Notes under the pieces: generated by a model
What the model was told of the DNA's origin: nothing
The model's database searches: none
What the model saw: the letters and a program-made list of their open reading frames with translations, nothing else
IMG/VR virus record: IMGVR_UViG_2718218131_000003
Span: 1-41,280 of that record
DNA: 41,280 nt
Source: a virus
Taxonomy: Duplodnaviria; Heunggongvirae; Uroviricota; Caudoviricetes
Direction: 5' to 3' (one strand)
Shown: in pieces, positions 1-37,171 of the stretch
How the letters are laid out: each line of letters opens with the position of its first letter
How positions within the stretch are numbered: position 1 is the stretch's first letter
Made by a program: the position numbers and the translations under genes

Positions 1-1131
1 TCAAATGACCAGTTTTTTCCACTCCTTACCGCGTGCATCGTTGTAAATATCGGTCATTTTTTGATTCGAATGACCCAGCAAAATTTTAGTATCAATTCCC
101 TGTTCTCTGAACAATCTTTCTGATAAAGATCTTTGCTCATGGAAAGAGGGGGGGGTGCCATTAGCACGCCAGTTGTAATCCACAGAATCCCGGGCTTTTT
201 TAAATGCAACTGTTAACGTTGCTGGTTTAACCATCCCGCCGCGCTTACCCATCCCCTTAGCGTGATGATGGTGCAATAACCACGGACTAAGGATGTAATC
301 ACGACAGGATGACACCACGTCACCCAGGGTCAGATTTAATTTGTCGCAACGCAGAGCCAGAGGAATGGCTATCCGGGCTCCTGTTTTTTGCTGTTCGACA
401 TGAAGATAACCATCCCGGATATCCGAAAATTGCATTTTGCAAATATCTGAAAGGCGCTGGCCTGTCATCAGTGCCAGCAGCATGCCGCGCTGTAAAAAGT
501 AACCATCCTTTTCCGCTGCGTTATAAATCATCGTCCACTCATCAAAAGTCAGTCGCTGTCTTGATATCCGCACCTGCGGTTTTTTTGCCGATTCTGCAGG
601 GTTAAAGCCTGGCGGGACATCGCCCGTTTGCTGAGCTTCCCGGAAAACATCGATCAGTACCTTCCTGAAAATTTGTCCCATTCTGTTATGTCCTCTGGCC
701 TTGTACTCTTCCAGCACCGATACCACATCTTTTACGGTTATGGTATCTAACGGTCTGGTGCCAAAACGTTCACCAAATACCTTGAGAGGGGCCGCTTTTT
801 GTTTCAGCGTGTTGAGTTTGATCTCTCCGTTCTCATATCTTTCCTGTTGAATTTTTCTGTAATTATTCAGAAAAATGGAAACGGTTGATGAACCTCCGGT
901 ATCACTAATAATCTTCTCCTGCAGACTGAGCATTTGCTCCATTTGTTGTCTGGCAAGACGGCTGTTCGCTTCTGCTGCAATGGTTTCCGCCAGTTTCTGG
1001 TCAATACTGCCGAGTCCATGATTTTTACCTGTGATGGGATGCCTGTAACGCCAGTAAACTTTGTTATTTCTTTTGTCAAAATACGGAGATAAACCCGGAA
1101 CATCGGTTTTATATTTTCGCGGGCGCGCCAT
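1..1131 (-). CDS. int: tyrosine integrase (lambda Int family)
   Basis: 376-aa ORF; C-terminal catalytic region with conserved His and Tyr (LLGHSNQKMTDIY); lies next to xis at the prophage end; stop codon at window positions 1-3. Confidence 0.9.
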   Translation of the reverse strand: MARPRKYKTDVPGLSPYFDKRNNKVYWRYRHPITGKNHGLGSIDQKLAETIAAEANSRLARQQMEQMLSLQEKIISDTGGSSTVSIFLNNYRKIQQERYENGEIKLNTLKQKAAPLKVFGERFGTRPLDTITVKDVVSVLEEYKARGHNRMGQIFRKVLIDVFREAQQTGDVPPGFNPAESAKKPQVRISRQRLTFDEWTMIYNAAEKDGYFLQRGMLLALMTGQRLSDICKMQFSDIRDGYLHVEQQKTGARIAIPLALRCDKLNLTLGDVVSSCRDYILSPWLLHHHHAKGMGKRGGMVKPATLTVAFKKARDSVDYNWRANGTPPSFHEQRSLSERLFREQGIDTKILLGHSNQKMTDIYNDARGKEWKKLVI

Positions 1132-1357
1132 CTTCCAGTATCCTCTTCAAAGCAGGGTGATCTGTGGCGATCACCTCCGGCTTGTTTACCATTCCTACAA
1201 AGCGAGCGTGTGGATCCACTCGCCAGTGTCTCCCAACTTTTTTGGGGAGAGGAAATATCATTCCGGCTTTAGCGTATTTACTTAACGTACCCGGAGTAGG
1301 GATCGGTTCACTGAATTCCTCTTTTGCCCACTCAGTGAGCAGAATAAGTCTTGCCAT
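1109..1357 (-). CDS. xis: excisionase-like protein
   Basis: 82-aa ORF immediately upstream of int and overlapping its start; Xis-like pattern of W/R/P residues (LTEWAKE...IFPLPKKVGRHWRV). Confidence 0.7.
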   Translation of the reverse strand: MARLILLTEWAKEEFSEPIPTPGTLSKYAKAGMIFPLPKKVGRHWRVDPHARFVGMVNKPEVIATDHPALKRILEDGAPAKI

Positions 1358-1421: not shown

Positions 1422-3797
1422 TTAAAAATCAGCCTGACTCGGGATCAGTTTTTGTATCGTAGCTGTAACGTATTTTGCCTGGTGACGGGCGTCATCCAGT
1501 GCATTGTGGCGCACGCCTTCGAATGGAATAACGGTTCTGGCATCAAAGTCGATTGTTTTTCCCAGCTCAACGATTGTGCGTACATCGCGATCGTTGTGGT
1601 AGCGCCACGGGCAGGGGATGTCCAGACGTTCGTATGAGGTGCGCAAAATTGCGTTATCGAAAGTCGCACCATTACCCCATACCTGAACGAATTTTTCATC
1701 TGAATATTCGTTGATGAACTTCCGAAACTGCGAAAGGGCATCCTTCAGTTTTACCTGGTCTGTTAAAATGGCAGCTCTGGCTTCACTGGACTGCTTCAGC
1801 CACCATTCGATGGTTCCACCGTCAGGAACAGCCCCTGTATTCATTGCGTCAGTCAGACTGATAACGATATAAAATACTGGCCCGATTTCCCCTGTTTGTG
1901 GGTCGAAGAAAACCGCACCAATAACCACGATGGGCGCATTGGTGTTGGTTCCCATTGTTTCAAGGTCGATCATCAGGTGATACCACACTCTGCTGGTGGA
2001 TGTGATAACGTGATGACCGTTCACCGTAATTAAGGGATCCGCCGTCTCGCCAGTTTCACTATCGCTGGCGTGGTCCTGAGCGCTGCCAGCATTCTCCTTG
2101 TGTGGATGTTCAGCGCCTTCCATTTCCTTCGGATCATTTTCCTGAACTTCAACCTGATTCTCTTCATCGAATGTTTCCTGGTATGTTGCGTCGCCCATCA
2201 CCGCGCCACAATCAGGGCAGTTGCCGCCGCCCGTCTGACCGCAGGCGGTGCAGATTTTTTCCGCTTCCTGTTGCGCTACTGGCTCAGGCTGTTTCGTTTC
2301 TGGCTCGTTTTGTAACCCCTTCACCCATTTCGGATCATTCGGGTCGCTAATCCCCTCAACAAATTCTCCGCGAGAGGCAGCAAGCAACTTATCGGCGTCA
2401 GGCTGGCTGATATTGGCTGCCTGCATAATTTTGTTTACTTCGTCAGCGGTAACTTTTACCTGATAAACCGGATCTATCTGTGCTTGAGTATCCAGCGATT
2501 GCGTGCCCTGCCGATGTTCAGTTGTATCCGGTTCCATTGTTTCAGCCGTTGCCTGCTCACCTGCCATTGCGTCAGACGGTTGTGATTTTTCCTCATTATT
2601 TTTTTCTTCTTCTGTTTCGTGTTCAGCAGCCAGTTCGCGGTTAACTTCTTCCAGAATATCTTTTTCCGGTGTATGTCGTGCAGCAGCGAGAGTTTCCTCG
2701 GAAGGGTTCTCGTGATCAGTCTCTGTTAAATTGGCGTTGATATACCCCTGAAGACGTCCCGGGTAATGATAAAACTCAGGGTGTGCGCTCCGGATAAGTG
2801 CAAAAATAGCGGCGCGGGAATAATCCAGGATACCCGGGATTGCGCGAAGTGCTGCGGACCATTCTTTGAACGGACTTTCTTTCTTCCGGACGATTTCTTT
2901 TGCGCGACGATAAACGCTGCCCGGAATTTCATAAATATTAAAATCCATCGGAAGTGTGGCCGCTGCAATCTCCACATCCAGCGTATCGAAGGTGTGTACT
3001 AAATTCGGATTGCGATCGGTTTTGTTCCCTCCACCGGCATTAGCACCGGAAGCCGTGCGGGTGATGCGTGAAACACGATTCCCTTTCATCCACTCTTTTG
3101 TCAGCAGACCGCGATCGGTGTAGTCAGCGCCCAGGTATGCTTCGAAAAAAGCAGTCATTAGCCCCAGGTCTGAATTACCAGGATTAGGGAAAACTTTGTC
3201 AGTATCACGCACCAGTTTATGGAGATCGCGAATTTCCAGTGGTTCGAGTTGCGCTGCTTTATTTGAGATGGCCAGCGCGGTAACAGCGGGAAGTTTTTCA
3301 TCCTGTGCGTTATGTAATGCGCGCAGTTCGTCCCGCGAAACGTGCGTTACTGGTTTTTCGCTGTTGTGTTGCGCCAGCCATCGAACAGGCAGAATCTGAC
3401 CTGAAACTGGCAGGAGCATATTCTCCTCAATCTCAGTCATGTCTTCACCGTTGACGTTGGTATTGTCAGTGCTGGCTGGTTTGTCCTGAACAGAGGGCAC
3501 GATAAGTACCATTGTGATACCATCTTCCCCGCCTTTTTCGTATCGGTTGCAGAATTCGGTATCAAACACGCCTTCCGGAGGAAGGTCATTCACAACGGGT
3601 AAATGGACGCGAACAGGTTTTTTAAAATCCTCTTCGTCAAATCCTGCATCGTCCATTGCGACAACACCGCGTGATATTGCAACCGATAATTTTTTTGCTG
3701 TGCGCCAGTAAAAACCGCCTTTAATCCCAAGACGTTTTCTGACTTTGTCATTTTTGGCTTCGTAATATAGTGCAATTTCTTCTTTATCAGTGCTCAT
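1422..3797 (-). CDS. phage exonuclease with C-terminal DEDDh (DnaQ-like) 3'-5' exonuclease domain
   Basis: 791-aa ORF; C-terminal motifs IDLETMG (Exo I) and HNALDDA (Exo III); long acidic low-complexity linker; N-terminal domain of unknown function. Confidence 0.75.
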
Positions 3798-3874
3798 TGA
3801 TAAACCTCATTACAGATTTAAGGGTGAACAAATCCCTGCCATTGCTGGCATATAAAAATGAAACCGGATATTTA

Positions 3875-4078
3875 TTACGGTGCTGTTTTAAGTCCCGCCG
3901 GGATTTCGTTATTGTCCATGTGAATAACTTTATCAACCGGATAACAGTTACCGGGAATTTTCTGTTCTGCTGCGGCAGCCATGCATTCTTTCATGGAACC
4001 GTAAATGTCAATAACCAGGTCAACAGGCTCGCCCGTATTAAGAAAAACTGTCAGAGTGAGAGCAACAGCAGTATTCAT
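3875..4078 (-). CDS. ydfD: YdfD-like small protein
   Basis: 67-aa product (MNTAVALTLTVFLNTGEPVD...KIPGNCYPVDKVIH) matches my memory of Qin prophage YdfD; start chosen at the internal Met that forms an ATGA overlap with the dicB stop. Confidence 0.7.
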   Translation of the reverse strand: MNTAVALTLTVFLNTGEPVDLVIDIYGSMKECMAAAAEQKIPGNCYPVDKVIHMDNNEIPAGLKTAP

Positions 4079-4263
4079 TGCCAGTATCCTTTTTGCATCA
4101 GGCGTAAACGGGCCAGCATTGAAACAATGCATATTTGATTTAATAGCTCCCGTTCGTGTTTTCTCTTATTAATGGCATCTTCAGTAAATACAGGGTTGCT
4201 GATTTTGACACCAATTTCAAAACAACCTTCAGACGTATTAACGTTTGGTAATAACGTTTCCAT
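4075..4263 (-). CDS. dicB: cell division inhibitor DicB
   Basis: 62-aa product METLLPNVNTSEGCFEIGVKISNPVFTEDAINKRKHERELLNQICIVSMLARLRLMQKGYWQ, near-identical to DicB as recalled; start taken at internal Met of the longer ORF 4075..4368. Confidence 0.8.
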   Translation of the reverse strand: METLLPNVNTSEGCFEIGVKISNPVFTEDAINKRKHERELLNQICIVSMLARLRLMQKGYWQ

Positions 4264-4432
4264 TATCGCGTCCTCAACAATGAATTTTGTGATGCGGTGC
4301 CTGGTGCCTCCAGGTGACGTTAACCAGTTAACAATTAACGCCGGATACAGAGAATCCACCCATAACACTGTTTTTGGTTTTAACTGTTCCGCGTGCGCTT
4401 AGCCGCATTCACCGCATCACAAAATTCACTTT

Positions 4433-4490
4433 AAAAAGGGCGGCAGAGCAGTCACGGAGTAAAACTGATACCGCCAAACGTCACCAGAAA
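4433..4490 (-). ncRNA. dicF: DicF small RNA (ftsZ-targeting sRNA)
   Basis: Reverse complement of 4438..4490 reads TTTCTGGTGACGTTTGGCGGTATCAGTTTTACTCCGTGACTGCTCTGCCGCCC, followed by a T-tract (intrinsic terminator hairpin GGCGG...CCGCC); matches DicF as recalled; sits between the ydfA-side genes and dicB as in the dicB operon. Confidence 0.8.
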
Positions 4491-4794
4491 ATTGATAACA
4501 GAGGGCGTTGCAGTGGGGTTGTCACTTAAGCGTATGGTCAACCTGACAACCCGGTGTCCTCAACGGGGAAGGAATAACCCCGCCATACTTACCGCCGCGC
4601 CATTTCGCGGATTGCCACAACCGGAAGCGCACGATCGAATTAAATTTAACGACGACCTATACAGAGAGACTAACTTCGCCGGGCGCTTTCGTGTTATGCC
4701 CTGACTTTTCAGGGATATATCCTTTTCAGTAAACTGTCAGTGCCGGATTCTTATCCGTGTCCGGCGCACGCACTCTACCTCACCTGTGAATAAA

Positions 4795-5181
4795 TTAATG
4801 ATTAATTGATATTTTGTTGTTTGATTCAACTTTCCCATCGGATGTGTGATGCTTTAAATCACAGGAATTAATACTGCTCGCTGTAAAATGATTTTCAAGG
4901 GGAGCTATTCGAATCCCTTTCTTTTTCATTAACAAGCCAAATCCTTTATTAATGATGTCCATTAATTCCAGGAAGTATTTTTCATGTAAATCCTGGTTAT
5001 CAGAGAGCTGCTTCTCTTCGTACAGACCGATAAAGGCACGACGCACGTTACCGGATATAGTATCGATGGTTTCTTTTTCTACGGTACTCAGGTCAAGAGT
5101 CGCCAGTTGAGAGCGAACCACATTCGATGCCATTTCCTGGAATGGTACTGGTAAATCTTTAAATTCCATCGTCAACCTCAT
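4795..5181 (-). CDS. hypothetical protein of the dicB operon (YdfB/YdfC-like position)
   Basis: 128-aa ORF; start forms an ATGA overlap with the ydfA stop (translational coupling); no recognisable domain. Confidence 0.5.
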   Translation of the reverse strand: MRLTMEFKDLPVPFQEMASNVVRSQLATLDLSTVEKETIDTISGNVRRAFIGLYEEKQLSDNQDLHEKYFLELMDIINKGFGLLMKKKGIRIAPLENHFTASSINSCDLKHHTSDGKVESNNKISINH

Positions 5182-5333
5182 CAGTCAGTGTTTCTGGTTA
5201 ACCAGCGACGCGCGCCAGCTTCAGTTTTAAACGTTTTGCTTCTGGTATACGTCATCGCGGTAAACGTGCCGTCCTGGTTGGGAAACACGCCGTACACCAG
5301 AGATTCGTTGTTGCCAAGATCGATAGTATCCAT
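5181..5333 (-). CDS. ydfA: YdfA-like protein (DUF1391)
   Basis: 50-aa product MDTIDLGNNESLVYGVFPNQDGTFTAMTYTRSKTFKTEAGARRWLTRNTD matches my memory of YdfA; first gene downstream of the repressor on the leftward strand. Confidence 0.7.
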   Translation of the reverse strand: MDTIDLGNNESLVYGVFPNQDGTFTAMTYTRSKTFKTEAGARRWLTRNTD

Positions 5334-5415
5334 GCTGACCTCATTTCCCCTTAACGCTGGGGTAGCGGAACTGTTTGCTGAGAACACCGTGCGGTGTCTT
5401 GATGGGTGGTAATTT

Positions 5416-5461
5416 AGTTTTCTCATGAATGTTGGTCAAGTATTTTTAATGAGAAAACTCA
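5416..5461. promoter_or_regulatory. putative repressor operator repeats upstream of the leftward (dicB-type) operon
   Basis: Motif TGAGAAAACT occurs at 5450..5461 (palindromic TGAG-AAAA-CTCA) and as reverse complement AGTTTTCTCA at 5416..5425; the same palindrome recurs at 5982..5995. Confidence 0.4.
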
Positions 5462-5523
5462 ATATTTAATGCAAAATAAAGCCAATACATTGAAATGTAA
5501 GGCTTTAAAATTTGTGAAGGGGG

Positions 5524-5931
5524 TTACTGATGTTTGTTACGTTTGCGAGCTTCTAGTAGCTCGGTGAATAGGCGATTAAAATTCTCAACGCGGGCACGGA
5601 GTTCGCTGATTTGTGCTTGCTGCTCTGATTTTGGAAGTGCGCGATACAATCGCAACATCTCCAACTCATCTTCCGATAAGTCTAAGGCGCTGTTGAGTGC
5701 AACTGGTGGATCTGGTGTTTTATCCTCGTCACCAAACAGTATCCAAGTTGGTGAACATTGCAATACCTCAGCCAGGCGATGCAAATTTTGCCCGCGCGGG
5801 GCTGTATGGTCGCTTTCCCATAGTGAAATTGATGAGCCAGATACGCCAGCGGCTTTGCTTAAATCGTTTTGACTTAAACCAACCTGTTTGCGTCTTTCTC
5901 TAATTCGTTGACCTAAAGTTTTCTCGTTCAT
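5524..5931 (-). CDS. dicA: DicA-like HTH (XRE family) prophage repressor
   Basis: 135-aa ORF with N-terminal HTH (LSQNDLSKAAGVSGSSISLWE) and the block LQCSPTWILFGDEDK shared with DicA as recalled; divergent from a Cro-like gene. Confidence 0.85.
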   Translation of the reverse strand: MNEKTLGQRIRERRKQVGLSQNDLSKAAGVSGSSISLWESDHTAPRGQNLHRLAEVLQCSPTWILFGDEDKTPDPPVALNSALDLSEDELEMLRLYRALPKSEQQAQISELRARVENFNRLFTELLEARKRNKHQ

Positions 5932-5952
5932 ATTTAGATATCTTAATAACCC

Positions 5953-5995
5953 TTGACTTGAGATTCCTTGAGTGATTACTATTGAGAAAACTCAA
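5953..5995 (+). promoter_or_regulatory. putative rightward promoter and operator for dicC
   Basis: TTGACT (5953..5958), 18-nt spacer, TACTAT (5977..5982), then 14-bp palindrome TTGAGAAAACTCAA (5982..5995) just upstream of a GGAGG RBS and the dicC ATG at 6009. Confidence 0.45.
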
Positions 5996-6008
5996 CTTTG
6001 GAGGGGTG

Positions 6009-6236
6009 ATGTTTAAATCAGACGTAATTAATTTTTATGGGACGAAAGCCAAAGTAGCGAAAGCTGCTGGTGTTGATCCATCTGCTGTTTCTCAATGGGG
6101 GGAACTGGTTCCTGAAGGTCGCGCGATGCGCCTGCAAGAGGCATCCGGCGGGGAACTTCAGTACGACCCCAAAGTTTATGACGAATATCGTAAGGCAAAG
6201 CGGGCGGGGCGGTTGAACAATGAAAATCACCCCTGA
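6009..6236 (+). CDS. dicC: DicC-like (Cro-like) regulator
   Basis: 75-aa product from the ATG at 6009 with a GGAGG RBS 5 nt upstream; small basic HTH-type protein divergent from the repressor; resembles DicC as recalled. Confidence 0.7.
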   Translation: MFKSDVINFYGTKAKVAKAAGVDPSAVSQWGELVPEGRAMRLQEASGGELQYDPKVYDEYRKAKRAGRLNNENHP

Positions 6237-9780: not shown

Positions 9781-10096
9781 TTACCAGGCACTGCGTGAGG
9801 CAGCAGAAGCAATAAAAGTCGTGGCAACGCCGCAAAAATTGCTTGCGTTTCGTATGAAAGTCACACCGCAGGTTGTGCTGGTGCTGCTGGATGAACTAGA
9901 AGCTAAAAACAAACGCATTACAGAACTGGAAGCGAGGGAAGTTCAATTACCGACTCGCTACGACCTTCGATATGGGCACCCAATAAATGCTGATAAGCGA
10001 CATGTCATGATACCTAAAGAAAATGGCAGTTGGCTTTGCCTGATTGACTTAGAACACGCACTACGCGTCGCTGGCATTCGCATCAAAGGAGAGTGA
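9767..10096 (+). CDS. hypothetical protein
   Basis: GTG start at 9767 overlapping the upstream stop; ~109 aa; coiled-coil-like stretch KNKRITELEAREVQL. Confidence 0.45.
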   Translation: MSEINYQALREAAEAIKVVATPQKLLAFRMKVTPQVVLVLLDELEAKNKRITELEAREVQLPTRYDLRYGHPINADKRHVMIPKENGSWLCLIDLEHALRVAGIRIKGE

Positions 10097-10097
10097 T

Positions 10098-10613
10098 ATG
10101 GCGTTAACACACCGCGAACTCTGTCAGATTGCGTACAAGTTCCTTAAGCGCAACGGGTTCAAGGTTTGCTTTCATGACCGCTTTATAGCTGTAACCAGTA
10201 CCGGAGAACAGCCAGATGCTATGGGATTCAGAAATTCAGCATCATGCCTGATAGAGGTGAAGTGTTCTCGTGCTGATTTGTTGGCAGATAGAAAAAAGCG
10301 TTTCCGTAAAAATCCCTCTCTTGGCATGGGCGACTGGCGATTCTTTATTAGTGAGCCGGGAATTATTTCAGTTGAGGATTTACCTCCTGGCTGGGGATTA
10401 CTTCACGTTGTTAACGGAAGAGTACGGAAAGTACATGGATGGCCCAGGGGTAATTGCTGTTGGGGTAATCCTGACGATAAGCCATTTACCGGGAATAAGC
10501 AGGTTGAATGCGATTACATGTTATCTGCATTAAGGCGCATGGAGTTGAGAGGGCACCTTAATGAAATATATGACGGTGTGATTGTTAATAAGAAAGAAGG
10601 AAACGCGGCATGA
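10098..10613 (+). CDS. putative PD-(D/E)xK-fold nuclease-like protein
   Basis: 171-aa ORF with GEQPDAMGF ... CLIEVKCSRADL, i.e. a PD ... ExK arrangement at the spacing seen in restriction-endonuclease-like folds; inference only. Confidence 0.45.
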   Translation: MALTHRELCQIAYKFLKRNGFKVCFHDRFIAVTSTGEQPDAMGFRNSASCLIEVKCSRADLLADRKKRFRKNPSLGMGDWRFFISEPGIISVEDLPPGWGLLHVVNGRVRKVHGWPRGNCCWGNPDDKPFTGNKQVECDYMLSALRRMELRGHLNEIYDGVIVNKKEGNAA

Positions 10614-11347
10614 TCACTATTACCAAAGATCGACTGCTGACAATCAAGCAGTGGCGCGAAATATACGGACCTGGTAGCAACGTTGTACTGCCAGCAGAAG
10701 AAGCGGAAGAACTGGCACGAATTGCTCTGGCATCGCTGGAAGCAAAACCAATAGGTGCTTTCCACATTGCAGAACAGCGAGTTGACGGCACAAGTGACTA
10801 CCTCAAGGATGGAGAATGGCCTATTGATAATGGAATTATTGAGGTCTACGCCGCCTCACCGATGACGGTAGTGCTGAACGATGTATCTGGACCTCTTGCT
10901 CTTGCTTACAAAGAGCTTACACCTGCGATTATGCGCAACCATATCGCTGTATTCGAACGATACGGAATAACCCCAAACGATAGCATCACTACAATTCATG
11001 CGCTTCGAATTGCGCTGGATGGCATAGAGCGGAGCGACGCCATGCTTCATGCCGGAAACTTTAGGGAAAACGCGAATTCGTCAACCAATAATTTTCGGGA
11101 AATTACGGAAACGTCAACCAACTCTCTGGTAACTCCGGATGGTTGGATAAGCTGTAGTGAGCGAATGCCGGATGATGGTCAGCACGTAATTATTTTATGT
11201 GATGGCGCATTCGTTCTTTATGCGCAATATCGAGACGGTGAGTTTTTTGATGTAGTCCGTGATGGTGATGAATTTTTCGAAACACAGAGCCGCAATGTAA
11301 CCGACTGGATGCCGCTACCAGAACCGCCGCAGGAGGTGCGCCAATGA
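10610..11347 (+). CDS. hypothetical protein with C-terminal DUF551-like domain
   Basis: 245-aa ORF; C-terminal segment DGWISCSERMPDDGQHVIILCDG...WMPLPEPP resembles the DUF551 phage domain. Confidence 0.5.
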   Translation: MITITKDRLLTIKQWREIYGPGSNVVLPAEEAEELARIALASLEAKPIGAFHIAEQRVDGTSDYLKDGEWPIDNGIIEVYAASPMTVVLNDVSGPLALAYKELTPAIMRNHIAVFERYGITPNDSITTIHALRIALDGIERSDAMLHAGNFRENANSSTNNFREITETSTNSLVTPDGWISCSERMPDDGQHVIILCDGAFVLYAQYRDGEFFDVVRDGDEFFETQSRNVTDWMPLPEPPQEVRQ

Positions 11348-11567: not shown

Positions 11568-11813
11568 ATTCATTACGATATGGGAATTCCCATATCGGGT
11601 AAAAACGGTTTGCGGGAAAAGGAGAGTTAAGTAGAATTGCTGCGGGTGCTTGAGGCTATCTGTCTCAGGCATGAACACCAAAAGGCAGATAGAGAAAAGC
11701 CCCAGTTAACATTACGCGTCCTGCAAGACGCTTAACATTAATCTGAGGCCCAATCTATGTCTCACAAATGTAGGTTAGCCTCTTACGTGCCGAAAGGCAA
11801 GGAGAAGCAGGCT

Positions 11814-11969
11814 ATGAAGCAGCAAAAGGCGATGTTAATCGCCCTGATCGTCATCTGTTTAACCGTCATAGTGACGGCACTGGTAACGAGGAAAGACCTC
11901 TGCGAGGTACGAATCCGAACCGGCCAGACGGAGGTTGCTGTCTTCACAGCTTACGAACCTGAGGAGTAA
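11814..11969 (+). CDS. hokD: Hok/Gef-family type I toxin (HokD/RelF-like)
   Basis: 51-aa product MKQQKAMLIALIVICLTVIVTALVTRKDLCEVRIRTGQTEVAVFTAYEPEE matches HokD (RelF) as recalled; AAGGAGAAG RBS upstream; the in-frame upstream extension from 11757 may be a mok-like leader. Confidence 0.85.
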   Translation: MKQQKAMLIALIVICLTVIVTALVTRKDLCEVRIRTGQTEVAVFTAYEPEE

Positions 11970-12038
11970 GAGACCTGGCGGGGGAGAAATCCCTCGCCAC
12001 CTCTGATGTGTCAGGCATCCTCAACGCACCCGCACTTA

Positions 12039-12070
12039 ACCCGCTTCGGCGGGTTTTTGTTTTTATTTTC
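12039..12070 (+). terminator. intrinsic terminator downstream of hok
   Basis: Hairpin CCCGC-TTCG-GCGGG (12040..12053) followed by TTTTTGTTTTTATTTT. Confidence 0.65.
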
Positions 12071-12186
12071 AACGCGTTTGAAGTTTTAGATGGTGCCGGA
12101 ATAGAATCAAAAATACTTAAGTAGCGCGCAGGGAGAAGAGGGATGGACCCCGAACAGGGGAGTGCTATTTATCTGGAAGGATTCTG

Positions 12187-12450
12187 TTGATGAAAATCGA
12201 AGAATTACGTGAAATTTTTAGTGAAGATGGCCTCTATACTGTGCGCGTTGAGAATGGTGCTATTGTCAGCCACTGCCGTATTAAATGTTTACAGTCTCAA
12301 CAAAGGAAGAGTGGAGCTGCGTTAATTCATTTTGTGGATGGGCTTGTGACGGATGGTTTTATTTTGCGTGCAAATGAATTTGTCACATCGTTGCCGTCTC
12401 TGAAAGAAGCTGGGATTAAGGCTGGTTTTTCTGCTTTTGAAGATGAGTGA
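12187..12450 (+). CDS. hypothetical protein
   Basis: 87-aa ORF between hok and the DUF968 gene; no recognisable domain. Confidence 0.45.
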   Translation: MMKIEELREIFSEDGLYTVRVENGAIVSHCRIKCLQSQQRKSGAALIHFVDGLVTDGFILRANEFVTSLPSLKEAGIKAGFSAFEDE

Positions 12451-13855: not shown

Positions 13856-14221
13856 ATGACTGAACGCATAGAATTTGTTTTGCCTTACCCGCCAACGGTG
13901 AACACTTACTGGCGACGTCGTGGCAGCACATATTTTGTATCAAAAGCCGGTGAGCGTTATCGCCGTGATGTGGCGCTTATTGTTCGCCAGCAGCGGCTGA
14001 AATTAAACCTGTCCGGAAGGCTGGCGATAAAGATTATTGCAGAGCCACCGGATAAGCGTCGTCGTGACCTGGACAATATCCTGAAAGCACCACTGGATGC
14101 GCTGACGCATGCCGGACTTCTCATAGACGACGAGCAGTTTGATGAAATCAATATTGTGCGCGGTCAGCTCGTTCCTGGGGGGCGGCTGGGCGTGAAGATT
14201 TACAAAATTGAGAGTGAGTGA
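13856..14221 (+). CDS. rusA: Holliday junction resolvase RusA
   Basis: 121-aa product with RusA blocks (LPYPPTVNTYWRRRG...PDKRRRDLDNILKAPLDALTHAGLLIDDEQ) aligning to RusA as recalled. Confidence 0.85.
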   Translation: MTERIEFVLPYPPTVNTYWRRRGSTYFVSKAGERYRRDVALIVRQQRLKLNLSGRLAIKIIAEPPDKRRRDLDNILKAPLDALTHAGLLIDDEQFDEINIVRGQLVPGGRLGVKIYKIESE

Positions 14222-14772
14222 TCGTAAATATGATATATCCGGAAATTACAGGCAAAAGCGGCGAGCATTTACGTCTAAAAACGCTGGAAGCCGTCTGGAT
14301 CCAGGGGAAATTACGGATGTGGGGGCGTTGGTCGTATATAGGTGGTGGCAAACCAGGAAATATGTTCAATCAGTTGCTGACATCCAAAAAACTGACAAAA
14401 ACCGCGATCAATGAAGCCCTGCGTAGAATCAGGGAGTCAGGGATTGATAAACCAGAGCTGGAAGCATTCTTGCGAGAGATGATCGCTGGCAGACAGAAGA
14501 GCTGGTTGTCTCACTGTACTGATGCAGAGGCGTTACGCATTGATGGGGTGATAAGTAAAGCGCTTGCACGTTATCCTGGATTGATTGATATCCTGCGGCA
14601 AAGGTACGAAGGGCGGGGGATGAGTAAACGCAAAATGGCTGAATTGTTGAATGAGGTTCACCCTGAGTGGTGCTATGCAACATGCCGCAATCGTATAGAT
14701 ATGTGGCTGAGAATAGCTGAGTTTATTCTGTATCCACTGATGCGAGATGCATTTTCTTTTACTGACGCTTAG
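14218..14772 (+). CDS. late-gene antiterminator (Q-like), assigned mainly by position
   Basis: 184-aa ORF overlapping the rusA stop; followed by an intrinsic terminator and then the late region, the classic Q / late promoter / tR-prime arrangement; sequence-level assignment not verified. Confidence 0.5.
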   Translation: MIVNMIYPEITGKSGEHLRLKTLEAVWIQGKLRMWGRWSYIGGGKPGNMFNQLLTSKKLTKTAINEALRRIRESGIDKPELEAFLREMIAGRQKSWLSHCTDAEALRIDGVISKALARYPGLIDILRQRYEGRGMSKRKMAELLNEVHPEWCYATCRNRIDMWLRIAEFILYPLMRDAFSFTDA

Positions 14773-14939
14773 AATCTGGAGGGCGTTTGTTGTTGCACGA
14801 AGAGGATTTTTGGCTGGTAGTAAGGTTTGTGCAGTTTTAGAAAAAAAGCTTGTATTTTTAGCCATAAACTGTTTCAATCCAGCTACGCTTCGCAAAGCTG
14901 TACCGCGAGGCGAATAGCAGACATGGACACCTGAAAGAA

Positions 14940-14961
14940 CCCGCTTTATGCGGGTTTTTTT
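14940..14961 (+). terminator. intrinsic terminator (tR-prime-like) downstream of the Q-like gene
   Basis: Hairpin CCCGC-TTTAT-GCGGG followed by TTTTTTT (14955..14961). Confidence 0.65.
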
Positions 14962-15102
14962 ATGCCTGAAAAACGGCACAGAACATTAAACGCGCTGGTT
15001 GTTGTGAATACTGGTCTTTCAGCTTGCTGGCTTTTTCGACAAGAGGTATTGGTATGTCACGTTAACCGGAAAAGGGAAAAAGGCATACTAAAACAGCAGG
15101 AT

Positions 15103-15282
15103 ATGACCGAAACCGCCAGAGTGGTGTTTAATGAATTAAGCGTCACCGAACCGGCGACCGTCGGGGAAATTGCGCAGAATACTGACCTTTCACGCGAACG
15201 CTGCCAGTTAATACTGACTCAGCTTGTTATGGCGGGTCTGGCAGATTATCAGTTCGGTTGTTACAGACGCCTTCCGCAGTGA
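15103..15282 (+). CDS. possible small HTH protein (weak)
   Basis: 59-aa product from the internal ATG at 15103 (MTETARVVFNELSVTEPATVGEIAQNTDLSRERCQLILTQLVMAGL...); RBS spacing is poor; the ORF-track start at 14962 lies inside the terminator T-tract. Confidence 0.25.
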   Translation: MTETARVVFNELSVTEPATVGEIAQNTDLSRERCQLILTQLVMAGLADYQFGCYRRLPQ

Positions 15283-15432
15283 AGGCTTTTTAATTTGTGG
15301 TAATGGGCGGCTGGTGGGTGTTAGCGGCACCTGCCAGCCATCTGCTCATGCGTTGGGGTCACAAGCAAACCTCAGGCCCATCTGCTTTGCGCAAAAGCGG
15401 TATGAGCCTATCAGAGAAGTGCTTATTGATCT

Positions 15433-16481
15433 ATGGCTAATACTGTAAAAATATCCAGTTGTGAGTTAATCAACGCTGATTGCCTGGAATTTATCCAGAC
15501 CTTACCGGAAAATTCTGTCGATCTGATAGTCACAGACCCGCCATACTTTAAAGTGAAGCCCGAGGGCTGGGATAACCAGTGGAAGGGCGACGATGATTAC
15601 CTGAAATGGCTGGATCAGTGTCTGGCGCAATTCTGGCGGGTACTGAAACCTGCCGGAAGTCTCTACCTGTTCTGTGGTCATCGCCTGGCATCTGACACCG
15701 AAATCATGATGCGTGAGCGCTTTAATGTGCTGAACCACATTATCTGGGCGAAGCCGTCCGGACGCTGGAACGGGTGCAATAAGGAAAGTCTGCGGGCGTA
15801 TTTTCCGGCAACAGAGCGCATTCTGTTTGCAGAACATTATCAGGGACCGTATCGCCCGAAAGATGATGGCTATGTGGAGCAGGGGCGCGAGCTAAAACAG
15901 CACGTCATGGCCCCGCTGATTTCTTACTTTCGTGATGCGCGTAAATCACTGGGAATAACGTCAAAACAGATAGCGGAAGCCACCGGAAAGAAAAACATGG
16001 CTTCGCACTGGTTTGGTATCAGTCAGTGGCAGTTACCGAACGAGGGTGATTACAACAAATTGCAGGCGTTGTTTGCGCGTGTTGCGGCAGAAAAACATCA
16101 GCGCGGGGAACTGGAAAAGCCACACCACCAGCTGGTCAGCACATACAGTGAGCTGAACCGGCAGTATACGGAACTGCTGAGTGAATATAAAAATTTGCGG
16201 CGGTATTTCGGTGTGACGGCGCAGGTTCCGTACACCGATGTCTGGACGCATAAACCGGTGCAGTACTATCCAGGGAAACATCCGTGCGAAAAACCGGCAG
16301 AAATGCTGCAGCAGATAATCAACGCGAGCAGTCGTCCGGGAGACCTGGTTGCAGATTTTTTATGGGTTCAGGTTCAACGGTAAAAGCGGCGATGGCACTG
16401 GGGCGTTGTGCGATTGGTGTTGAGCTGGAGACCGGACGCTTTGAACAGACAGTCAGGGAAGTTCAGGATTTAATCGTTTGA
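15433..16481 (+). pseudogene. DNA N6-adenine methyltransferase (DPPY motif), split by a frameshift at a T6 tract
   Basis: ORF 15433..16383 carries DPPY (motif IV) and ends ...DLVADFLWVQVQR; ORF 16284..16481 in another frame carries FFMGSGSTVKAAMALG (motif I, FxGxG). Frames meet at TTTTTT 16356..16361; one additional T would give a continuous ~349-aa enzyme. Confidence 0.75.
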
Positions 16482-16530
16482 AACGGATGAGATTGCAGAA
16501 TTAATTACGCACCATTATTATTCTGCTCCC

Positions 16531-16606
16531 GGCCCTTTAGCTCAGTGGTGAGAGCGAGCGACTCATAATCGCCAGGTCGCTGGTTCAAATCCAGCAAGGG
16601 CCACCA
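16531..16606 (+). tRNA. tRNA with CAU anticodon, ileX-like (tRNA-Ile2, lysidine type) or Met
   Basis: 76 nt, acceptor stem GGCCCTT/AAGGGCC, anticodon loop CTCATAA, GTTCAAATC T-loop, 3' CCA; closely resembles E. coli ileX as recalled. Confidence 0.8.
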
Positions 16607-16607
16607 A

Positions 16608-16684
16608 CCGCCACTAGCTCATCAGGAAAGAGCGTCAACCCTTTAAGTTGAGTGTGCGAGGTTCGAGTCCCCGGTGGCGGTCCA
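16608..16684 (+). tRNA. tRNA, atypical; anticodon loop CCTTTAA (UUU/Lys if canonical), isotype uncertain
   Basis: 77 nt; acceptor CCGCCAC/GTGGCGG, D-stem GCTC/GAGC, anticodon stem TCAAC/GTTGA, T-loop TTCGAGT, 3' CCA; position 33 is C rather than the near-universal U and C1-G72 starts the acceptor stem. Confidence 0.5.
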
Positions 16685-16686
16685 GT

Positions 16687-16762
<76 letters not shown>

Positions 16763-16765
16763 TAT

Positions 16766-16840
<75 letters not shown>

Positions 16841-17048
16841 GTTAGAGTCTTTCGGTCTGCGATGATGGGAAATCCCGGAGTGACTGAAAGACGTTTAGGT
16901 TATGAATGATCGCCTTTTTTTTGCAAAATTGCTGTGCAGAAATACCAACCTTCGGGCAGGCGATCATTCATAAGCACTCTGCTTTTATTCCGATTAACTG
17001 TGGGTGGTTTGTTGGATAGAGTGCTTTCCTGACTGTAGATCCAATTTC

Positions 17049-17073
17049 GCCCGCTTTTGCGGGCTTTTCTTTT
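17049..17073 (+). terminator. intrinsic terminator downstream of the tRNA array
   Basis: Hairpin GCCCGC-TTTT-GCGGGC followed by TTTTCTTTT. Confidence 0.6.
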
Positions 17074-17133
17074 CAAATCCCTTTCATCTCTCAGTGTAAA
17101 ACTACGCCATCCGTTATTTGCGGAGGTGAGGCT

Positions 17134-17349
17134 ATGAAATCCATGGACAAAATTTCAACGGGCATTGCCTACGGCACCTCCGCAGGCAGTGCTGGCTACT
17201 GGTTTTTACAGTGGCTTGATCAAGTCAGTCCGTCACAGTGGGCTGCGATTGGTGTACTGGGGAGTCTGATTCTGGGCTTCCTGACTTATCTGACAAATCT
17301 GTACTTCAAAATCAGAGAAGACAAGCGTAAGGCTGCACGGGGAGAGTAA
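17134..17349 (+). CDS. S: class II holin (phage 21 S-type pinholin) with dual-start motif
   Basis: 71-aa product [71 protein letters not shown]; Met1-Lys-Ser-Met4 dual start and two TM segments as in S21. Confidence 0.85.
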
Positions 17350-17353
17350 TTCA

Positions 17354-17668
17354 ATGACTCAAAACTATGAAGTGATTGTGAAAGGGATCCGCAATTTTGA
17401 GAATAAAGTTACGGTAACTTTAGCGTTACGGGACAAAAAACGCTTTGACGGTGAAATTTTTGACCTGGACATCTCGCTGGACCGTGTTGAAGGTGCCGCG
17501 CTGGAGTTTTATGAGGCAGCAGCCAGAAGGAGCATCAGACAGGTCTTCCTGGATGTTGCTGCCGGGTTATGTGAAGAGGACGAGCTGTTGCCAGAAACGC
17601 GCCCCTGTTCAGAGGCGCGGTATACTATAAAAATTAACAGTTCTGATAACTCGATTACAGGTTGTTAG
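17354..17668 (+). CDS. hypothetical protein inserted between holin and endolysin
   Basis: 104-aa ORF starting 5 nt after the holin stop; soluble, acidic, no TM segment; no family recognised. Confidence 0.5.
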   Translation: MTQNYEVIVKGIRNFENKVTVTLALRDKKRFDGEIFDLDISLDRVEGAALEFYEAAARRSIRQVFLDVAAGLCEEDELLPETRPCSEARYTIKINSSDNSITGC

Positions 17669-17723
17669 CTTTTTGCAGTTGGCTTTCCAGTATCTTTCAT
17701 TGGTAGCATCCTGATAAATATCC

Positions 17724-18257
17724 ATGAGCGCAAAAATCAAATACGGCCTGTCAGCTGCTGTTCTGGCGCTGATTGCTGCAGGCGCGTCTGCTCCTCAAAT
17801 ACTTGACCAGTTTCTGGATGAAAAAGAGGGTAACCACACTACGGCATACCGCGATGGTTCCGGTATATGGACCATCTGTCGTGGTGCCACAATGGTGGAT
17901 GGTAAGCCCGTCATACCGGGAATGAAGCTGTCGAAGGAAAAATGCGACCAGGTTAACGCTATTGAACGTGATAAGGCGCTGGCATGGGTGGAGCGCAATA
18001 TTAAAGTACCACTGACCGAACCACAGAAAGCGGGTATAGCGTCATTCTGTCCCTATAACATTGGCCCCGGTAAGTGTTTCCCGTCGACGTTTTATAAGCG
18101 GCTGAATGCCGGTGATCGTAAGGGCGCATGCGAGGCGATTCGCTGGTGGATAAAAGATGGTGGGCGCGATTGCCGCATACGTTCAAATAACTGCTATGGA
18201 CAGGTTATTCGTCGTGACCAGGAAAGCGCATTAGCCTGTTGGGGGATAGATCAGTGA
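17724..18257 (+). CDS. R: SAR endolysin (T4 lysozyme-like, GH24) of phage 21 R type
   Basis: 177 aa; N-terminal signal-anchor-release segment ([19 protein letters not shown]); catalytic E-x8-D-x5-T arrangement ([20 protein letters not shown]). Confidence 0.85.
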
Positions 18258-18721
18258 GCAGAGTCGCAGCGATTATTTATACTCTGGTTATCTGCACCAT
18301 CGTCTGCCTGTCGTGGGCGGTCAATCATTACCGTGATAACGCCATCACCTACAAAGAACAGCGTGATAAAAAAGTCAGTGAGCTGAAGCAGGTGACCGCC
18401 ACCATCGCTGACATGCAGCAGCGTCAGCGTGATGTTGCTGCGCTCGATGCAAAGTACTCGAGAGAATTAGCCAATGCGAAAGCTGAAAATGAAACTCTGC
18501 GCGCTGATGTTGCCGCTGGTCGTAAGCGCCTGCGGGTCAATGCCAGTTGCTCCGCAGCCGTGCGTGAAGCCACCGGACCCACCAGCGTGGATAATGCAAC
18601 CAGCCCCCGACTGGCAGACACCGCTGAACGGGATTATTTCATCCTCAGAGAACGGTTGATGACAATGCAGAAGCAGCTGGAAGGGGCACAGGACTATATC
18701 CGCACTCAGTGCCTGAACTAA
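18254..18721 (+). CDS. Rz: i-spanin Rz
   Basis: GTG start overlapping the endolysin stop (GTGA); N-terminal TM helix ([17 protein letters not shown]) followed by coiled-coil periplasmic domain. Confidence 0.75.
18474..18659 (+). CDS. Rz1: o-spanin Rz1 (lipoprotein) embedded in the +1 frame of Rz
   Basis: Signal peptide with lipobox LVVSAC, proline-rich mature part ([24 protein letters not shown]); entirely inside Rz in another frame. Confidence 0.7.
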
Positions 18722-19135
18722 GTTTTGCTGATGCGCCGTATCGTCACCGTATTCCTGCATTAACAGAGACCGCAGCCCGACAGGGAGACTCCTCTGCGAG
18801 AGTGTGCGGGGATAATCAAAAACGATACACACCGGGGTTTACCGCGTTAACGGAGCGCGGTGTTGTCCCCTCATAGTCGCCAGTCCGGTGCGATGGTGGA
18901 AGAAACTGGATTTTGTTGCAAATGATAACCATTATCATTTTTTGCGGGTCCTCCTGGTGGGGTGGGCCTGAACACGGGGCGGGCGGCGCGGAAAAAGGCG
19001 CATTTTTTGATTTTTATGGCACCATCACCACCAGTGTAAGTTATTGATATATAGAAAAATAAAAATTTTTAGTGTCGAATCTGGTTGTTTTTTGTTCATC
19101 ACTGGTGTGTGTTTACATAATTTTCAGGGGGAGTT

Positions 19136-19612
19136 ATGGATCGTGAATTAAAAAATCTGCATCTGAATATTTCCCAACTGGCCGCATTATCCGGTGCTCA
19201 TCGACAGACTGTTGCGGCTCGGGTAAAAAACATAAGCCCAGCCGGTGGTCATGAGAGCAATCTCAAACTGTACCGACTGACAGATATCCTTGCCGAGCTG
19301 ATGAAAGCTCCTCTGCCTGTAGATAACAAGGAAATGGATCCTCATGCGCGTAAAGCATGGTACCAGTCAGAACGTGACCGACTGAAATTTGAGCAGGAAA
19401 CTGGTCAGCTTGTGCCAGTCAGTGATGTCAGGCGGTCCTTTTCTGTCGTGGTGAAAGCGATAGTTCAGGTACTGGAAACCTGGCCTGACCGGCTGGAAAG
19501 GGACAGGGGGTGGACCGCATCACAACTGAATGAAGTACAGATTGTGGTTGATGAGATCCGCGATACACTGGAAAAGGCAGTCATTGACTGTTGTGATGAG
19601 GCCGATATGTGA
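19136..19612 (+). CDS. terminase small subunit (Nu1-like, N-terminal HTH)
   Basis: 158-aa ORF with N-terminal HTH (ISQLAALSGAHRQTVAARVKN), directly upstream of and overlapping the large terminase gene; preceded by a cos-like GC-rich segment. Confidence 0.7.
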   Translation: MDRELKNLHLNISQLAALSGAHRQTVAARVKNISPAGGHESNLKLYRLTDILAELMKAPLPVDNKEMDPHARKAWYQSERDRLKFEQETGQLVPVSDVRRSFSVVVKAIVQVLETWPDRLERDRGWTASQLNEVQIVVDEIRDTLEKAVIDCCDEADM

Positions 19613-21732: not shown

Positions 21733-21941
21733 GCACAGAAGAAGCCAGAGAAATGATACAGCGGTACCGTGAAGCGGAAATGGCCGTACTGGAGGGAAAG
21801 TCTGTCACCTTCAACGGGCAGCAACTGACGCTGGAAAGCCTTTCTCAGATCCGCGCCGGACGTCAGGAGTGGGAACGCAGGCTTGCCGCGATGGTGAGCC
21901 GCAGGCGGGGAAAACCGGGATTTAAACTGGCGAGGTTTTAA
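21729..21941 (+). CDS. head-tail joining protein (lambda gpW-like)
   Basis: ~70 aa from a GTG overlapping the terminase stop; C-terminus RRGKPGFKLARF resembles the lambda W C-terminus; sits between terminase and portal. Confidence 0.65.
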   Translation: MSTEEAREMIQRYREAEMAVLEGKSVTFNGQQLTLESLSQIRAGRQEWERRLAAMVSRRRGKPGFKLARF

Positions 21942-25412: not shown

Positions 25413-25434
25413 TAACCGCGTTATCACAATCACT

Positions 25435-25453
25435 GCCCGAAAGGGCTTTTTTT
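25435..25453 (+). terminator. intrinsic terminator downstream of the capsid gene
   Basis: Hairpin GCCC-GAAA-GGGC followed by TTTTTTT; a second hairpin AGCCCC-ACAG-GGGCT at 25457..25471. Confidence 0.5.
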
Positions 25454-25499
25454 ATGCCTGAAAAACAGCCCCACAGGGGCTGTCCGGAGAAACAGCATT

Positions 25500-25826
25500 A
25501 TGGCGAAAAATTTTGTACAGGACGGTACCACCATTGAACTGGTGAATGCCGGAGATCAGACCATCCTGAGCGGTGCTGCGGTGGTGGTCGGCAGTATGGT
25601 GGCCGTGGCCATTACCGATATTCCTGCCGGTGAGGCCGGTGACGGTTTTGCCGAAGGCGTGTTCCTGCTGCCCAAACAGTCTGCTGACGACATTCAGTCC
25701 GGCGCGGTGGTTTATCTGAAGGACGGGGTTGTGCAGTTGGCTGCCGACGGTGCGGTGGCCGCGGGGGTAGCCTGGGAAAATGCTCCTGCAAACAGCGCCA
25801 CTGTGGCGGTAAAAATCAATGTCTGA
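25500..25826 (+). CDS. head-associated protein (DUF2190-like, possible decoration/stabilisation protein)
   Basis: 108-aa Gly/Ala/Val-rich ORF directly after the capsid gene; assignment by position and composition. Confidence 0.45.
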   Translation: MAKNFVQDGTTIELVNAGDQTILSGAAVVVGSMVAVAITDIPAGEAGDGFAEGVFLLPKQSADDIQSGAVVYLKDGVVQLAADGAVAAGVAWENAPANSATVAVKINV

Positions 25827-26100
25827 TCTGTTTACGCGAATGTGTTGCCGGATGGACGTGGCGACCGTTCGGATGATGGGCAAACAGGCGGAGATTAACG
25901 GCGTCGTGTACGACGTGATGCCGGAGGAAGAGTCCGCGGAGATGGGGGCGCTTTCGGGCAGCCAGTTGTCACTGGTGGTGTTTTCAGCCCGGTACCGTCC
26001 GGCCCGTCATGATGTTGTTGTGTTTGAGGGCCGCACACTGACGGTGACCCGTTATGACACGTACAACGGTAAACCCCGGATTTTTGTCGAACAGGAATGA
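25819..26100 (+). CDS. head completion / head-tail connector protein (FII-like position)
   Basis: 93-aa ORF between the head and gpZ-like genes, overlapping its neighbours. Confidence 0.45.
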   Translation: MSDLFTRMCCRMDVATVRMMGKQAEINGVVYDVMPEEESAEMGALSGSQLSLVVFSARYRPARHDVVVFEGRTLTVTRYDTYNGKPRIFVEQE

Positions 26101-26726: not shown

Positions 26727-26738
26727 CTGGGAGGGTGT

Positions 26739-27137: not shown

Positions 27138-27144
27138 GGACGAT

Positions 27145-27897: not shown

Positions 27898-27910
27898 ACG
27901 GAGGTAATAC

Positions 27911-28668: not shown

Positions 28669-28702
28669 CAGTTATTGATGGTATCAGAGGACATTTCAGG
28701 AG

Positions 28703-32381: not shown

Positions 32382-32385
32382 TCCC

Positions 32386-37151: not shown

Positions 37152-37171
37152 AATTTTTATAACCCCAATAC

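Follow-up and report, generated by a model that had tools for sequence, protein, structure and literature searches.

Can a cell-division inhibition module best known from the defective Qin prophage of Escherichia coli K-12 serve a prophage that still carries its own lysis, head and tail genes? The question is raised by a 41,280-nt stretch of Caudoviricetes DNA (IMG/VR record IMGVR_UViG_2718218131_000003). We call the whole stretch the window and give all coordinates of the element as window positions. A preliminary description had reported the small RNA (sRNA) DicF, the cell-division inhibitor gene dicB and a ydfD-like gene in one leftward operon of the window, and had suggested a role during induction or in superinfection exclusion. 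We find it highly probable that the window holds an undisrupted Qin-type dicBF cassette in the PL-equivalent early-left operon of a mosaic, gene-complete Escherichia lambdoid prophage of the PPompW / VT1-Sakai kind, where the cassette would act as an early host-takeover and exclusion module.

The K-12 reference used throughout is the MG1655 Qin locus (L001), which was fetched and aligned to the window. A wider sample of DicB loci comprises 80 DicB-encoding viral contigs and seven loci of species-representative genomes (E. coli, E. ruysiae, E. albertii, Shigella flexneri and one metagenome-assembled genome (MAG) labelled Veillonella), together with the window, K-12 and the phage mEp460_ev081. 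Matches were read against the Rfam gathering scores of RF00039 (DicF, 48 bits) and RF02076 (STnc100, 47 bits), and the Pfam cut-offs of PF05358 (DicB, 27 bits) and PF07358 (DUF1482, 25 bits). The int stop codon marks the left end of the window, and the right end falls within cargo genes; flanking host DNA and attachment (att) sites lie outside the window.

DicF and its leader match those of K-12

The cassette lies on the minus strand and consists of the following features.

4491..4770, minus strand: conserved non-coding leader, about 280-300 nt, the precursor/processing region (alignment to the K-12 leader)
4438..4490, minus strand: DicF small RNA, 53 nt (Rfam RF00039 and identity to K-12 dicF)
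4264..4432, minus strand: structured DicF-dicB spacer (inverted repeat I1, fold, sub-threshold Rfam match)
4075..4263, minus strand: dicB, encoding a 62-aa cell-division inhibitor (Pfam PF05358, phrog_1251)
3875..4078, minus strand: ydfD homologue, 67 aa, DUF1482 (Pfam PF07358, 72.8 bits)
3837..3850, minus strand: weak terminator-like hairpin 3' of ydfD (consensus scan only)

The coordinates, lengths and identities given for this module in the preliminary description all proved correct, and its 53-nt DicF, 62-aa DicB and YdfD-like gene are each present. Alignment to K-12 dicF and dicB, which that description had proposed as a check, finds the DicF seed regions and the DicB frame undisrupted.

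An Rfam scan of the whole window gives a full-length RF00039 match at 4438..4489 on the minus strand (model positions 1-52, 76.7 bits, E = 2.3e-15). With the extra 5' U at 4490, the RNA is identical to K-12 dicF at 53/53 bases in the alignment to Qin. A single-stranded 5' region is followed by a terminator hairpin (GGCGGUAUCAG...CUGCUCUGCCGCC), which appears in both the minimum free energy (MFE) and centroid folds, and then by a U5 tract at 4433..4437. Its pairing regions are all identical to K-12: the 3' part, for which compensatory mutations have shown pairing with the ftsZ ribosome-binding site, and the 5' part, which pairs with xylR and pykA (PMC5069750).

The leader is similarly conserved. 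One mismatch to K-12 falls in the 70 nt 5' of DicF and a handful in the last ~150 nt of the leader, with sparse changes farther upstream. RNase III and RNase E generate DicF in K-12, and the terminator hairpin fixes its 3' end (PMC10448788). Transferred to the window, RNase III would form the 5' end of the 190-nt precursor at about 4627 and RNase E would cut at the DicF 5' end. The fold of the 370-nt leader plus DicF (z = -1.8) is uninformative on the RNase III stem, since its MFE structure breaks the DicF terminator. Because DicF is identical and the leader with its mapped RNase III and RNase E sites is conserved, results obtained with K-12 DicF should apply directly to this locus.

dicB and ydfD are intact and under constraint

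DicB scores 130.9 bits against PF05358 over profile positions 1-62 of 62, its frame is uninterrupted, and it aligns to K-12 DicB gap-free with 55/62 residues identical (89%). The Shine-Dalgarno sequence GAGGA sits 7 nt 5' of the ATG. A longer dicB open reading frame (ORF) can be read from a GTG at 4368; the 62-aa start is preferred, as it has the Shine-Dalgarno sequence and matches the K-12 product. K-12 DicB brings MinC to the septum via ZipA; in a separate activity, it keeps lambda DNA from entering by the ManYZ-dependent route (PMC6832061).

The ydfD ATG overlaps the dicB stop codon (ATGA), as it does in K-12. YdfD is identical to its K-12 counterpart at 44/63 residues (70%) and retains both conserved cysteines. 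It is longer by a C-terminal extension of 4 aa (KTAP), caused by a 1-bp indel just ahead of the K-12 stop. This 67-aa KTAP form is the majority among the loci (68/89), with a K-12-like 63-aa form at 19/89. An alternative 85-aa ydfD from the ATG at 4132 was rejected: the Pfam match starts at residue 24, and K-12 and related loci use the ATGA-overlap start. K-12 YdfD binds IspG and causes lysis, which DicB or SulA can prevent (PMC8835842). The longest K-12 transcript detected ends past ydfD (PMC10448788).

Ratios of non-synonymous to synonymous polymorphism (pN/pS) are 0.31 for dicB (38 distinct alleles) and 0.32 for ydfD (51 distinct alleles), and values of about 0.3 indicate that both genes are under purifying selection. 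DicB, YdfD and YdfA, the first product of the operon, are each assigned to an existing PHROG family. Unlike these, the antisense plus-strand ORFs across the module (3770..4138, 4172..4402, 4374..4529 and 4492..4704) have no PHROG match, and they were treated as spurious.

At 21 of the 89 DicB loci, DicB stops two codons early (...MQKGR, then stop). Either the C-terminus tolerates truncation or these copies are decaying.

The DicF-dicB spacer is structured

The 174-nt stretch between DicF and dicB differs from K-12 at three positions. Its outer stem is a perfect 19 bp (4410..4428 with 4281..4299, 100% complementary) with smaller hairpins inside, and the fold has z = -5.1. The stem stops right before the dicB Shine-Dalgarno sequence, and because it ends there the spacer could control dicB translation or processing.

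The 38 distinct variants of the spacer keep the structure of the outer stem and of three inner hairpins without exception, and have a hypervariable insert at the centre. Seven of the eight kinds of substitution in the 19-bp stem are wobble-compatible (G-C to G.U), and double-sided compensatory covariation in that stem was absent from the 38 variants. The predicted structure is thus supported by conservation and wobble compatibility, not by covariation. The spacer also matches STnc100, a prophage-associated sRNA family, over the full length of the model (RF02076, positions 1-206), and shares its long closing stem and inner hairpins. At 39.1 bits the match falls below the gathering score, so the spacer is not a member by the Rfam criterion, and here it forms the 5' leader of dicB.

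A PL-type operon with a DicA-like immunity region

The regulatory features around the cassette are as follows.

5524..5931, minus strand: DicA-like repressor, 135 aa (Pfam HTH_3, 60.9 bits)
5411..5462, minus strand: predicted leftward early promoter, the dicBp/PL analogue (promoter scan, inverted repeat I2, 9-mer enrichment, operator pattern scan)
5181..5333, minus strand: ydfA homologue, 50 aa, first gene of the leftward operon (PF07151, DUF1391, 95.3 bits; phrog_751)
4795..5181, minus strand: 128-aa ORF (phrog_6937, 1.5e-76; no Pfam match)
5917..5994, plus strand: predicted rightward early promoter (TTGACT 5953..5958, 18-nt spacer, TACTAT 5977..5982)
5982..6236, plus strand: DicC / P22-Cro-like regulator, likely ATG start at 6009, 75 aa (Pfam P22_Cro, 63.6 bits)
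12187..12450, plus strand: Rem homologue, 63/87 residues (72%) identical to K-12 Rem, beside hok/sok as in Qin
11644..11969, plus strand: hok/sok-type toxin-antisense locus with a Hok-like ORF at 11757..11969 (Rfam sok, 120.1 bits)

Read leftward, the order is repressor, promoter/operators, ydfA, the 128-aa ORF (orf128), leader, DicF, spacer, dicB, ydfD, the exonuclease gene (exo), xis and int. The proposal that this operon stands under a DicA-like repressor is supported by the synteny to Qin, the identity to DicA, the sigma-70-like promoter and a 9-mer found at both early promoters. The repressor is equal in length to K-12 DicA and identical to it at 72/128 residues (56%); its helix-turn-helix (HTH) region has diverged and its C-terminal half is conserved. 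Because it has an HTH only and the Pfam search of the 135-aa protein gave no S24 peptidase domain, it is of the non-cleavable type. The public collection lists this exact protein in 12,954 blocks. K-12 DicA is short, non-cleavable and of the Gifsy type, and is antagonised by Rem, which is encoded 3.6 kb away beside hokD (PMC10448788).

The leftward promoter lies between the repressor gene and ydfA and is sigma-70-like (-35 TTGACC 5439..5434, -10 TAAATT 5416..5411). An operator-like TGAG-AAAA-CTCA at 5450..5461 abuts the -35, and a one-mismatch copy at 5414..5425 overlaps the -10. The rightward promoter has a perfect operator-like TGAG-AAAA-CTCA at 5983..5994 and an extra GAGAAAACT copy at 5917..5925. 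This 9-mer occurs four times in the 41-kb window (5416, 5451, 5917 and 5984; 0.27 expected), always at the two early promoters. Of the four sites, two form perfect TGAG-N4-CTCA dyads and a third is one mismatch away. The layout at the leftward promoter is as expected of OL/OR-type operators, to which the repressor would bind.

The DicC-like protein, whose gene is divergent from that of the repressor, is identical to K-12 DicC at 53/75 residues (71%). Overall the immunity region fits the DicA/DicC (Gifsy-like) type, with a short HTH repressor, a divergent Cro-like gene, operator-like sites at both promoters and a Rem homologue. In related loci, syntenic neighbours carry Pfam PF27490 'Rem'. We considered SOS induction through LexA control of the rem homologue and set it aside, there being no LexA box near 12,000..12,190, the region 5' of the gene. 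Mitomycin C leaves K-12 dicBp uninduced (PMC10448788).

The alignment to K-12 is itself a mosaic. The repressor gene has diverged, the operators cannot be aligned, and from just past the leftward -10 the match is near-perfect and includes ydfA. The alignment fails again at the 128-aa ORF, which takes the place of ydfB/ydfC in Qin, is unrelated to them, and looks like a mosaic joint within the operon. With a repressor HTH and operators that have both moved away from those of Qin, this prophage is probably heteroimmune to it yet drives the same transcript.

Two prophages with an identical repressor (L092 and L096) carry a gene for a 284-aa Rha/ASH-family regulator at 9863..10717, directly 5' of dicB in the DicF-leader region.

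The prophage is complete in gene content

The genes bearing on the completeness of the prophage are as follows.

1..1131, minus strand: tyrosine integrase (PHROG)
1109..1357, minus strand: excisionase (PHROG)
1422..3797, minus strand: exonuclease-like protein, 791 aa (Pfam Exonuc_VIII and Rv2179c-like)
14218..39198, plus strand: late region (PHROG assignments, ORF list)
14218..14772, plus strand: Q-like antiterminator (PHROG)
17134..17349, plus strand: S21-type holin (PHROG)
17724..18257, plus strand: signal-arrest-release (SAR) endolysin, then Rz with embedded Rz1 (PHROG)
33759..37151, plus strand: tail gene J, 1130 aa, in a lambda-type tail set, then Lom (PHROG)
37879..39198, plus strand: side tail fibre (PHROG)

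The claim of complete lysis, head and tail genes stands at the level of gene content, borne out by open frames with PHROG assignments and by similarity to ASU11 and VT1-Sakai. All genes of these groups that were checked have open frames of normal length and strong PHROG assignments. Head genes comprise TerS, TerL, portal, a ClpP-protease/major-capsid fusion and a decoration protein; tail genes comprise the completion protein, terminator, major tail protein, G/T chaperones, tape measure, M, L, K, I and J. O-like and P-like replication genes, RusA and an HNH/DUF968 gene are present too. The 791-aa protein is intact and joins an Exonuc_VIII/YdfE-like N-terminal region to a C-terminal Rv2179c-like 3'-5' exoribonuclease domain.

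The late stretch (17000..40000) shows about 92-93% identity over about 90% to ASU11, VT1-Sakai and several Shiga toxin (Stx)-converting phages. PPompW prophage records cover 51% of the early half, and the same int/xis adjoin ompW in related genomes. The best complete E. coli genome matches 76% of the first 25 kb at 96.3%. Phage records contained no identical element, with best covers of 51% (early half) and 91% (late stretch searched), and the element is a new mosaic of familiar parts.

One gene in this region looks damaged. The DNA methyltransferase at 15433..16481 (plus strand) appears frameshifted, with a 316-aa ORF that stops at 16383 and a C-terminal motif in another frame at 16284..16481; it could be a pseudogene or a sequencing error.

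The cassette could be intact in a prophage that is functionally defective despite its full gene content, a Qin-like domesticated host asset with sporadic or stress expression. We hold this to be possible but unlikely. The frameshifted-looking methyltransferase, att sites beyond the window and the want of an identical phage record all suit it, and many full-sized E. coli O157 prophages with dicBF are considered defective (PMC5069750), but all of the checked lysis, head and tail genes are open and of normal length, int, xis and the large exonuclease that Qin has lost are intact here, and an isolated phage, mEp460_ev081, shares the early-left arm.

Proposed action of the cassette

We favour an early takeover and exclusion module, and infer its course from what has been found in K-12 with the same parts or their homologues. 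In a lysogen, as in K-12, the DicA-like repressor would sit on the TGAG-N4-CTCA sites and keep the operon silent. Once repression is lifted, by the Rem-like antirepressor or through a switch to a DicC/Cro-like state, a polycistronic RNA would be made. RNase III and RNase E would excise DicF from it, the DicF terminator setting the 3' end, and read-through transcripts would give DicB and then, by translational coupling, YdfD. DicF would repress translation of ftsZ and act on other targets (xylR, pykA and manX). DicB would recruit MinC to ZipA, so that Z rings are dismantled, and would block ManYZ-dependent DNA entry of lambda-like phages; YdfD would inhibit IspG and promote lysis unless division is blocked. 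In a prophage still able to develop lytically, the cassette would thus be an early takeover/exclusion module analogous to lambda Kil and Rac KilR. The role suggested at the outset, in induction or superinfection exclusion, is consistent with K-12 work (PMC6832061, PMC10448788).

Several observations weigh against this interpretation. Whole-molecule RNAduplex pairing of DicF with the K-12 ftsZ initiation region is not significant (z = -1.6, 7% of shuffles equal); canonical DicF gives the best energy among the sRNA alleles compared, -38.5 kcal/mol, a value that at this z is non-discriminating. The putative operators differ from those of Qin and cannot be aligned with them, and the rem homologue has no LexA box in the region searched. 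DicB differs from K-12 at 7/62 residues, clustered C-terminally, and YdfD at 19/63 in addition to its 4-aa extension. K-12 YdfD loses its lysis activity on a one-residue C-terminal deletion or an L63A change (PMC8835842), and because of this sensitivity to C-terminal change the activity of the window allele is uncertain. On the other side, most loci carry the 67-aa form, and both cysteines are kept. Finally, with a frameshifted-looking, non-essential methyltransferase and att sites outside the window, 'complete' refers to gene content only.

Protection of the lysogen might instead be the main role, with DicB/ManYZ superinfection exclusion and DicF tuning of metabolism or virulence through low-level or bistable expression, and lytic takeover secondary. 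We think this less likely. About 1% of K-12 cells switch dicBp on spontaneously, in dependence on DicC, stationary-phase accumulation of DicF does not need Rem (PMC10448788), and brief dicBF expression protects against lambda (PMC6832061). Canonical DicF (58 nt including the U tail) is moreover kept in 3968/5426 complete E. coli genomes (73%), at up to 7 copies per genome. However, the cassette sits in a PL-type operon, 5' of exo/xis/int and controlled by the immunity repressor, where an early lytic function such as lambda kil would be expected, and the protective and takeover roles are not mutually exclusive.

That DicF is functional while the proteins have drifted, with alleles of DicB and/or YdfD that have stopped inhibiting division or lysing cells, is improbable: the C-terminal cluster among the 7 DicB substitutions, the 19 in YdfD with its extension, the sensitivity of K-12 YdfD to terminal changes and the 21 loci with early-stopping DicB would fit such drift, but both frames are intact, pN/pS of about 0.3 over dozens of alleles speaks of constraint, profile scores lie far over the cut-offs, and the 67-aa YdfD with both cysteines is the commonest form.

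The sRNA slot upstream of dicB is allelic

The sRNA slot 5' of dicB is allelic among the sampled loci (about 2760-2830 in most of L003-L089; 4438..4490 in the window). Canonical DicF occupies it at 26 loci and a version with one or two changes at 2 more. A second RNA, type B (CCAUGUUGAUUACCUUUUGGCGGGUAUCC...GAUACCCGCC), is found at 34 sampled loci and a third, type C (GGCGGCAUCAG...CUGAUGUCCGCC), at 18, alongside a few recombinant forms; the loci were chosen by similarity to the window DicB allele, and these abundances reflect that choice. Both variants are rare in complete E. coli genomes: type B occurs in 153 and type C in 91, compared with 3968 that have canonical DicF. Against the Rfam DicF model type C reaches 39 bits, short of the gathering score, and type B goes unreported at E <= 0.01. 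The flanks of the slot, the leader upstream and the spacer downstream, are conserved across alleles.

One IMG/VR contig (L003) encodes a DicB 100% identical to that of the window, yet carries a type C sRNA, and matches the window only in pieces at 90-98%; on these two grounds it was rejected as the source of the window. Because it pairs a window-identical DicB with another sRNA, this contig shows recombination inside the cassette. A swappable sRNA slot and a structured dicB leader would be properties of the cassette family, not of the window alone.

Taken further, and tentatively, the sRNA, the STnc100-like leader, dicB and ydfD may form a modular cassette in which the sRNA is swapped among at least three allelic types with differing seeds and loops while the flanks stay fixed. 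The non-canonical alleles would then be prophage sRNAs that retarget host regulation, and in gene-complete prophages the cassette would be an early takeover/exclusion programme, not a relic kept by the host. We give this larger scheme a fairly low probability. A 2026 'Pas sRNA' preprint was considered as a prior account of the slot and dismissed, as it has no mention of DicF or dicB.

Relation to known systems

The cassette has the gene order and orientation of Qin, an identical DicF and a near-identical leader, spacer and ydfA. Protein identities are 89% for DicB, 70% for YdfD, 56% for DicA, 71% for DicC and 72% for Rem, and the ATGA overlap is common to both. The window differs from Qin in its operators and repressor HTH, in the 128-aa gene that replaces ydfB/ydfC, and in a YdfD that is 4 aa longer. 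Its exonuclease, xis and int are intact, whereas Qin has IS2-disrupted pseudogenes (e.g. ydfE), and it keeps the full set of lysis and morphogenesis genes, most of which Qin has lost.

The closest phage relative of the module is mEp460_ev081 (LR597641.1), a functional temperate phage. Its order is Cro-like gene, 135-aa repressor, ydfA, one ORF, DicF, dicB, ydfD, large exonuclease, xis and int. It carries the exact 53-nt DicF, and no phage record matches the 2.2-kb module better than it does (80% cover at 91.6% identity). The two are only ~92% identical over the module; the late region of the window is closer to ASU11/VT1-Sakai and its int end to PPompW. The novelty implied by the preliminary description does not hold, since this phage has the same module in the same order and has already been described as having it. 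A 2016 paper reported that about 2,000 phage genomes lacked DicB and DicF, suggesting survival only in defective prophages (PMC5069750); the same laboratory noted in 2023 that the functional phage mEp460_ev081 has dicB, dicF, dicAC and rem (PMC10448788).

Lambda Kil and Rac KilR resemble the cassette as small early-left products that block FtsZ-ring assembly once repression by the immunity repressor ends. Like DicB, lambda Kil depends on ZipA. The likeness is functional, no relationship of sequence being expected, and the window cassette adds an sRNA (DicF) and a lysis protein (YdfD).

Prophages of enterohaemorrhagic E. coli (EHEC; O157:H7 Sakai and EDL933) also have canonical DicF on large lambdoid elements, often with dicB (PMC5069750, PMC7873438). 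Those elements differ from the window in being usually described as defective. DicF in EHEC additionally activates pchA, a target that the host of the window may or may not have.

Canonical DicF occurs in 22 phage records, and some part of the 2.2-kb module is matched in 4756 genomes. The presence of the module in a functional phage is already known, and the window copy is an ordinary member of a very common cassette. With a DicF of K-12 sequence, a cassette found in most E. coli genomes and a published functional-phage case, the locus has little discovery value. Its value is modest, as a clean natural example of dicBF that keeps what Qin lost (exonuclease, xis, int, lysis and morphogenesis genes) and has Rem in addition. 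If its source strain is available, such a prophage could address the benefit of the cassette to the phage, where K-12 allows study of host benefit only.

Near-identical E. coli-type DicF/dicB DNA also occurs in a contig binned as a Veillonella parvula MAG (L084, JAGZPX010000007.1) and in the record of a 254-kb Aeromonas phage (MT713136.1). Both are likely to be binning or assembly contamination, not true host range.

Remaining features of the window

Two further features lie on either side of the lysis, head and tail genes.

16531..16840, plus strand: four tandem tRNA genes (anticodons CAT, TTT, TGT and TCC), between the methyltransferase and the holin
39583..41280, minus strand: two leftward ORFs past the tail fibre, of 91 aa (phrog_5398) and 453 aa (phrog_2028), no Pfam match and no assigned function

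No stx gene is present between the tRNA genes and the holin, the usual tRNA/stx position of Stx phages. The two leftward ORFs at the right end are probably prophage cargo.

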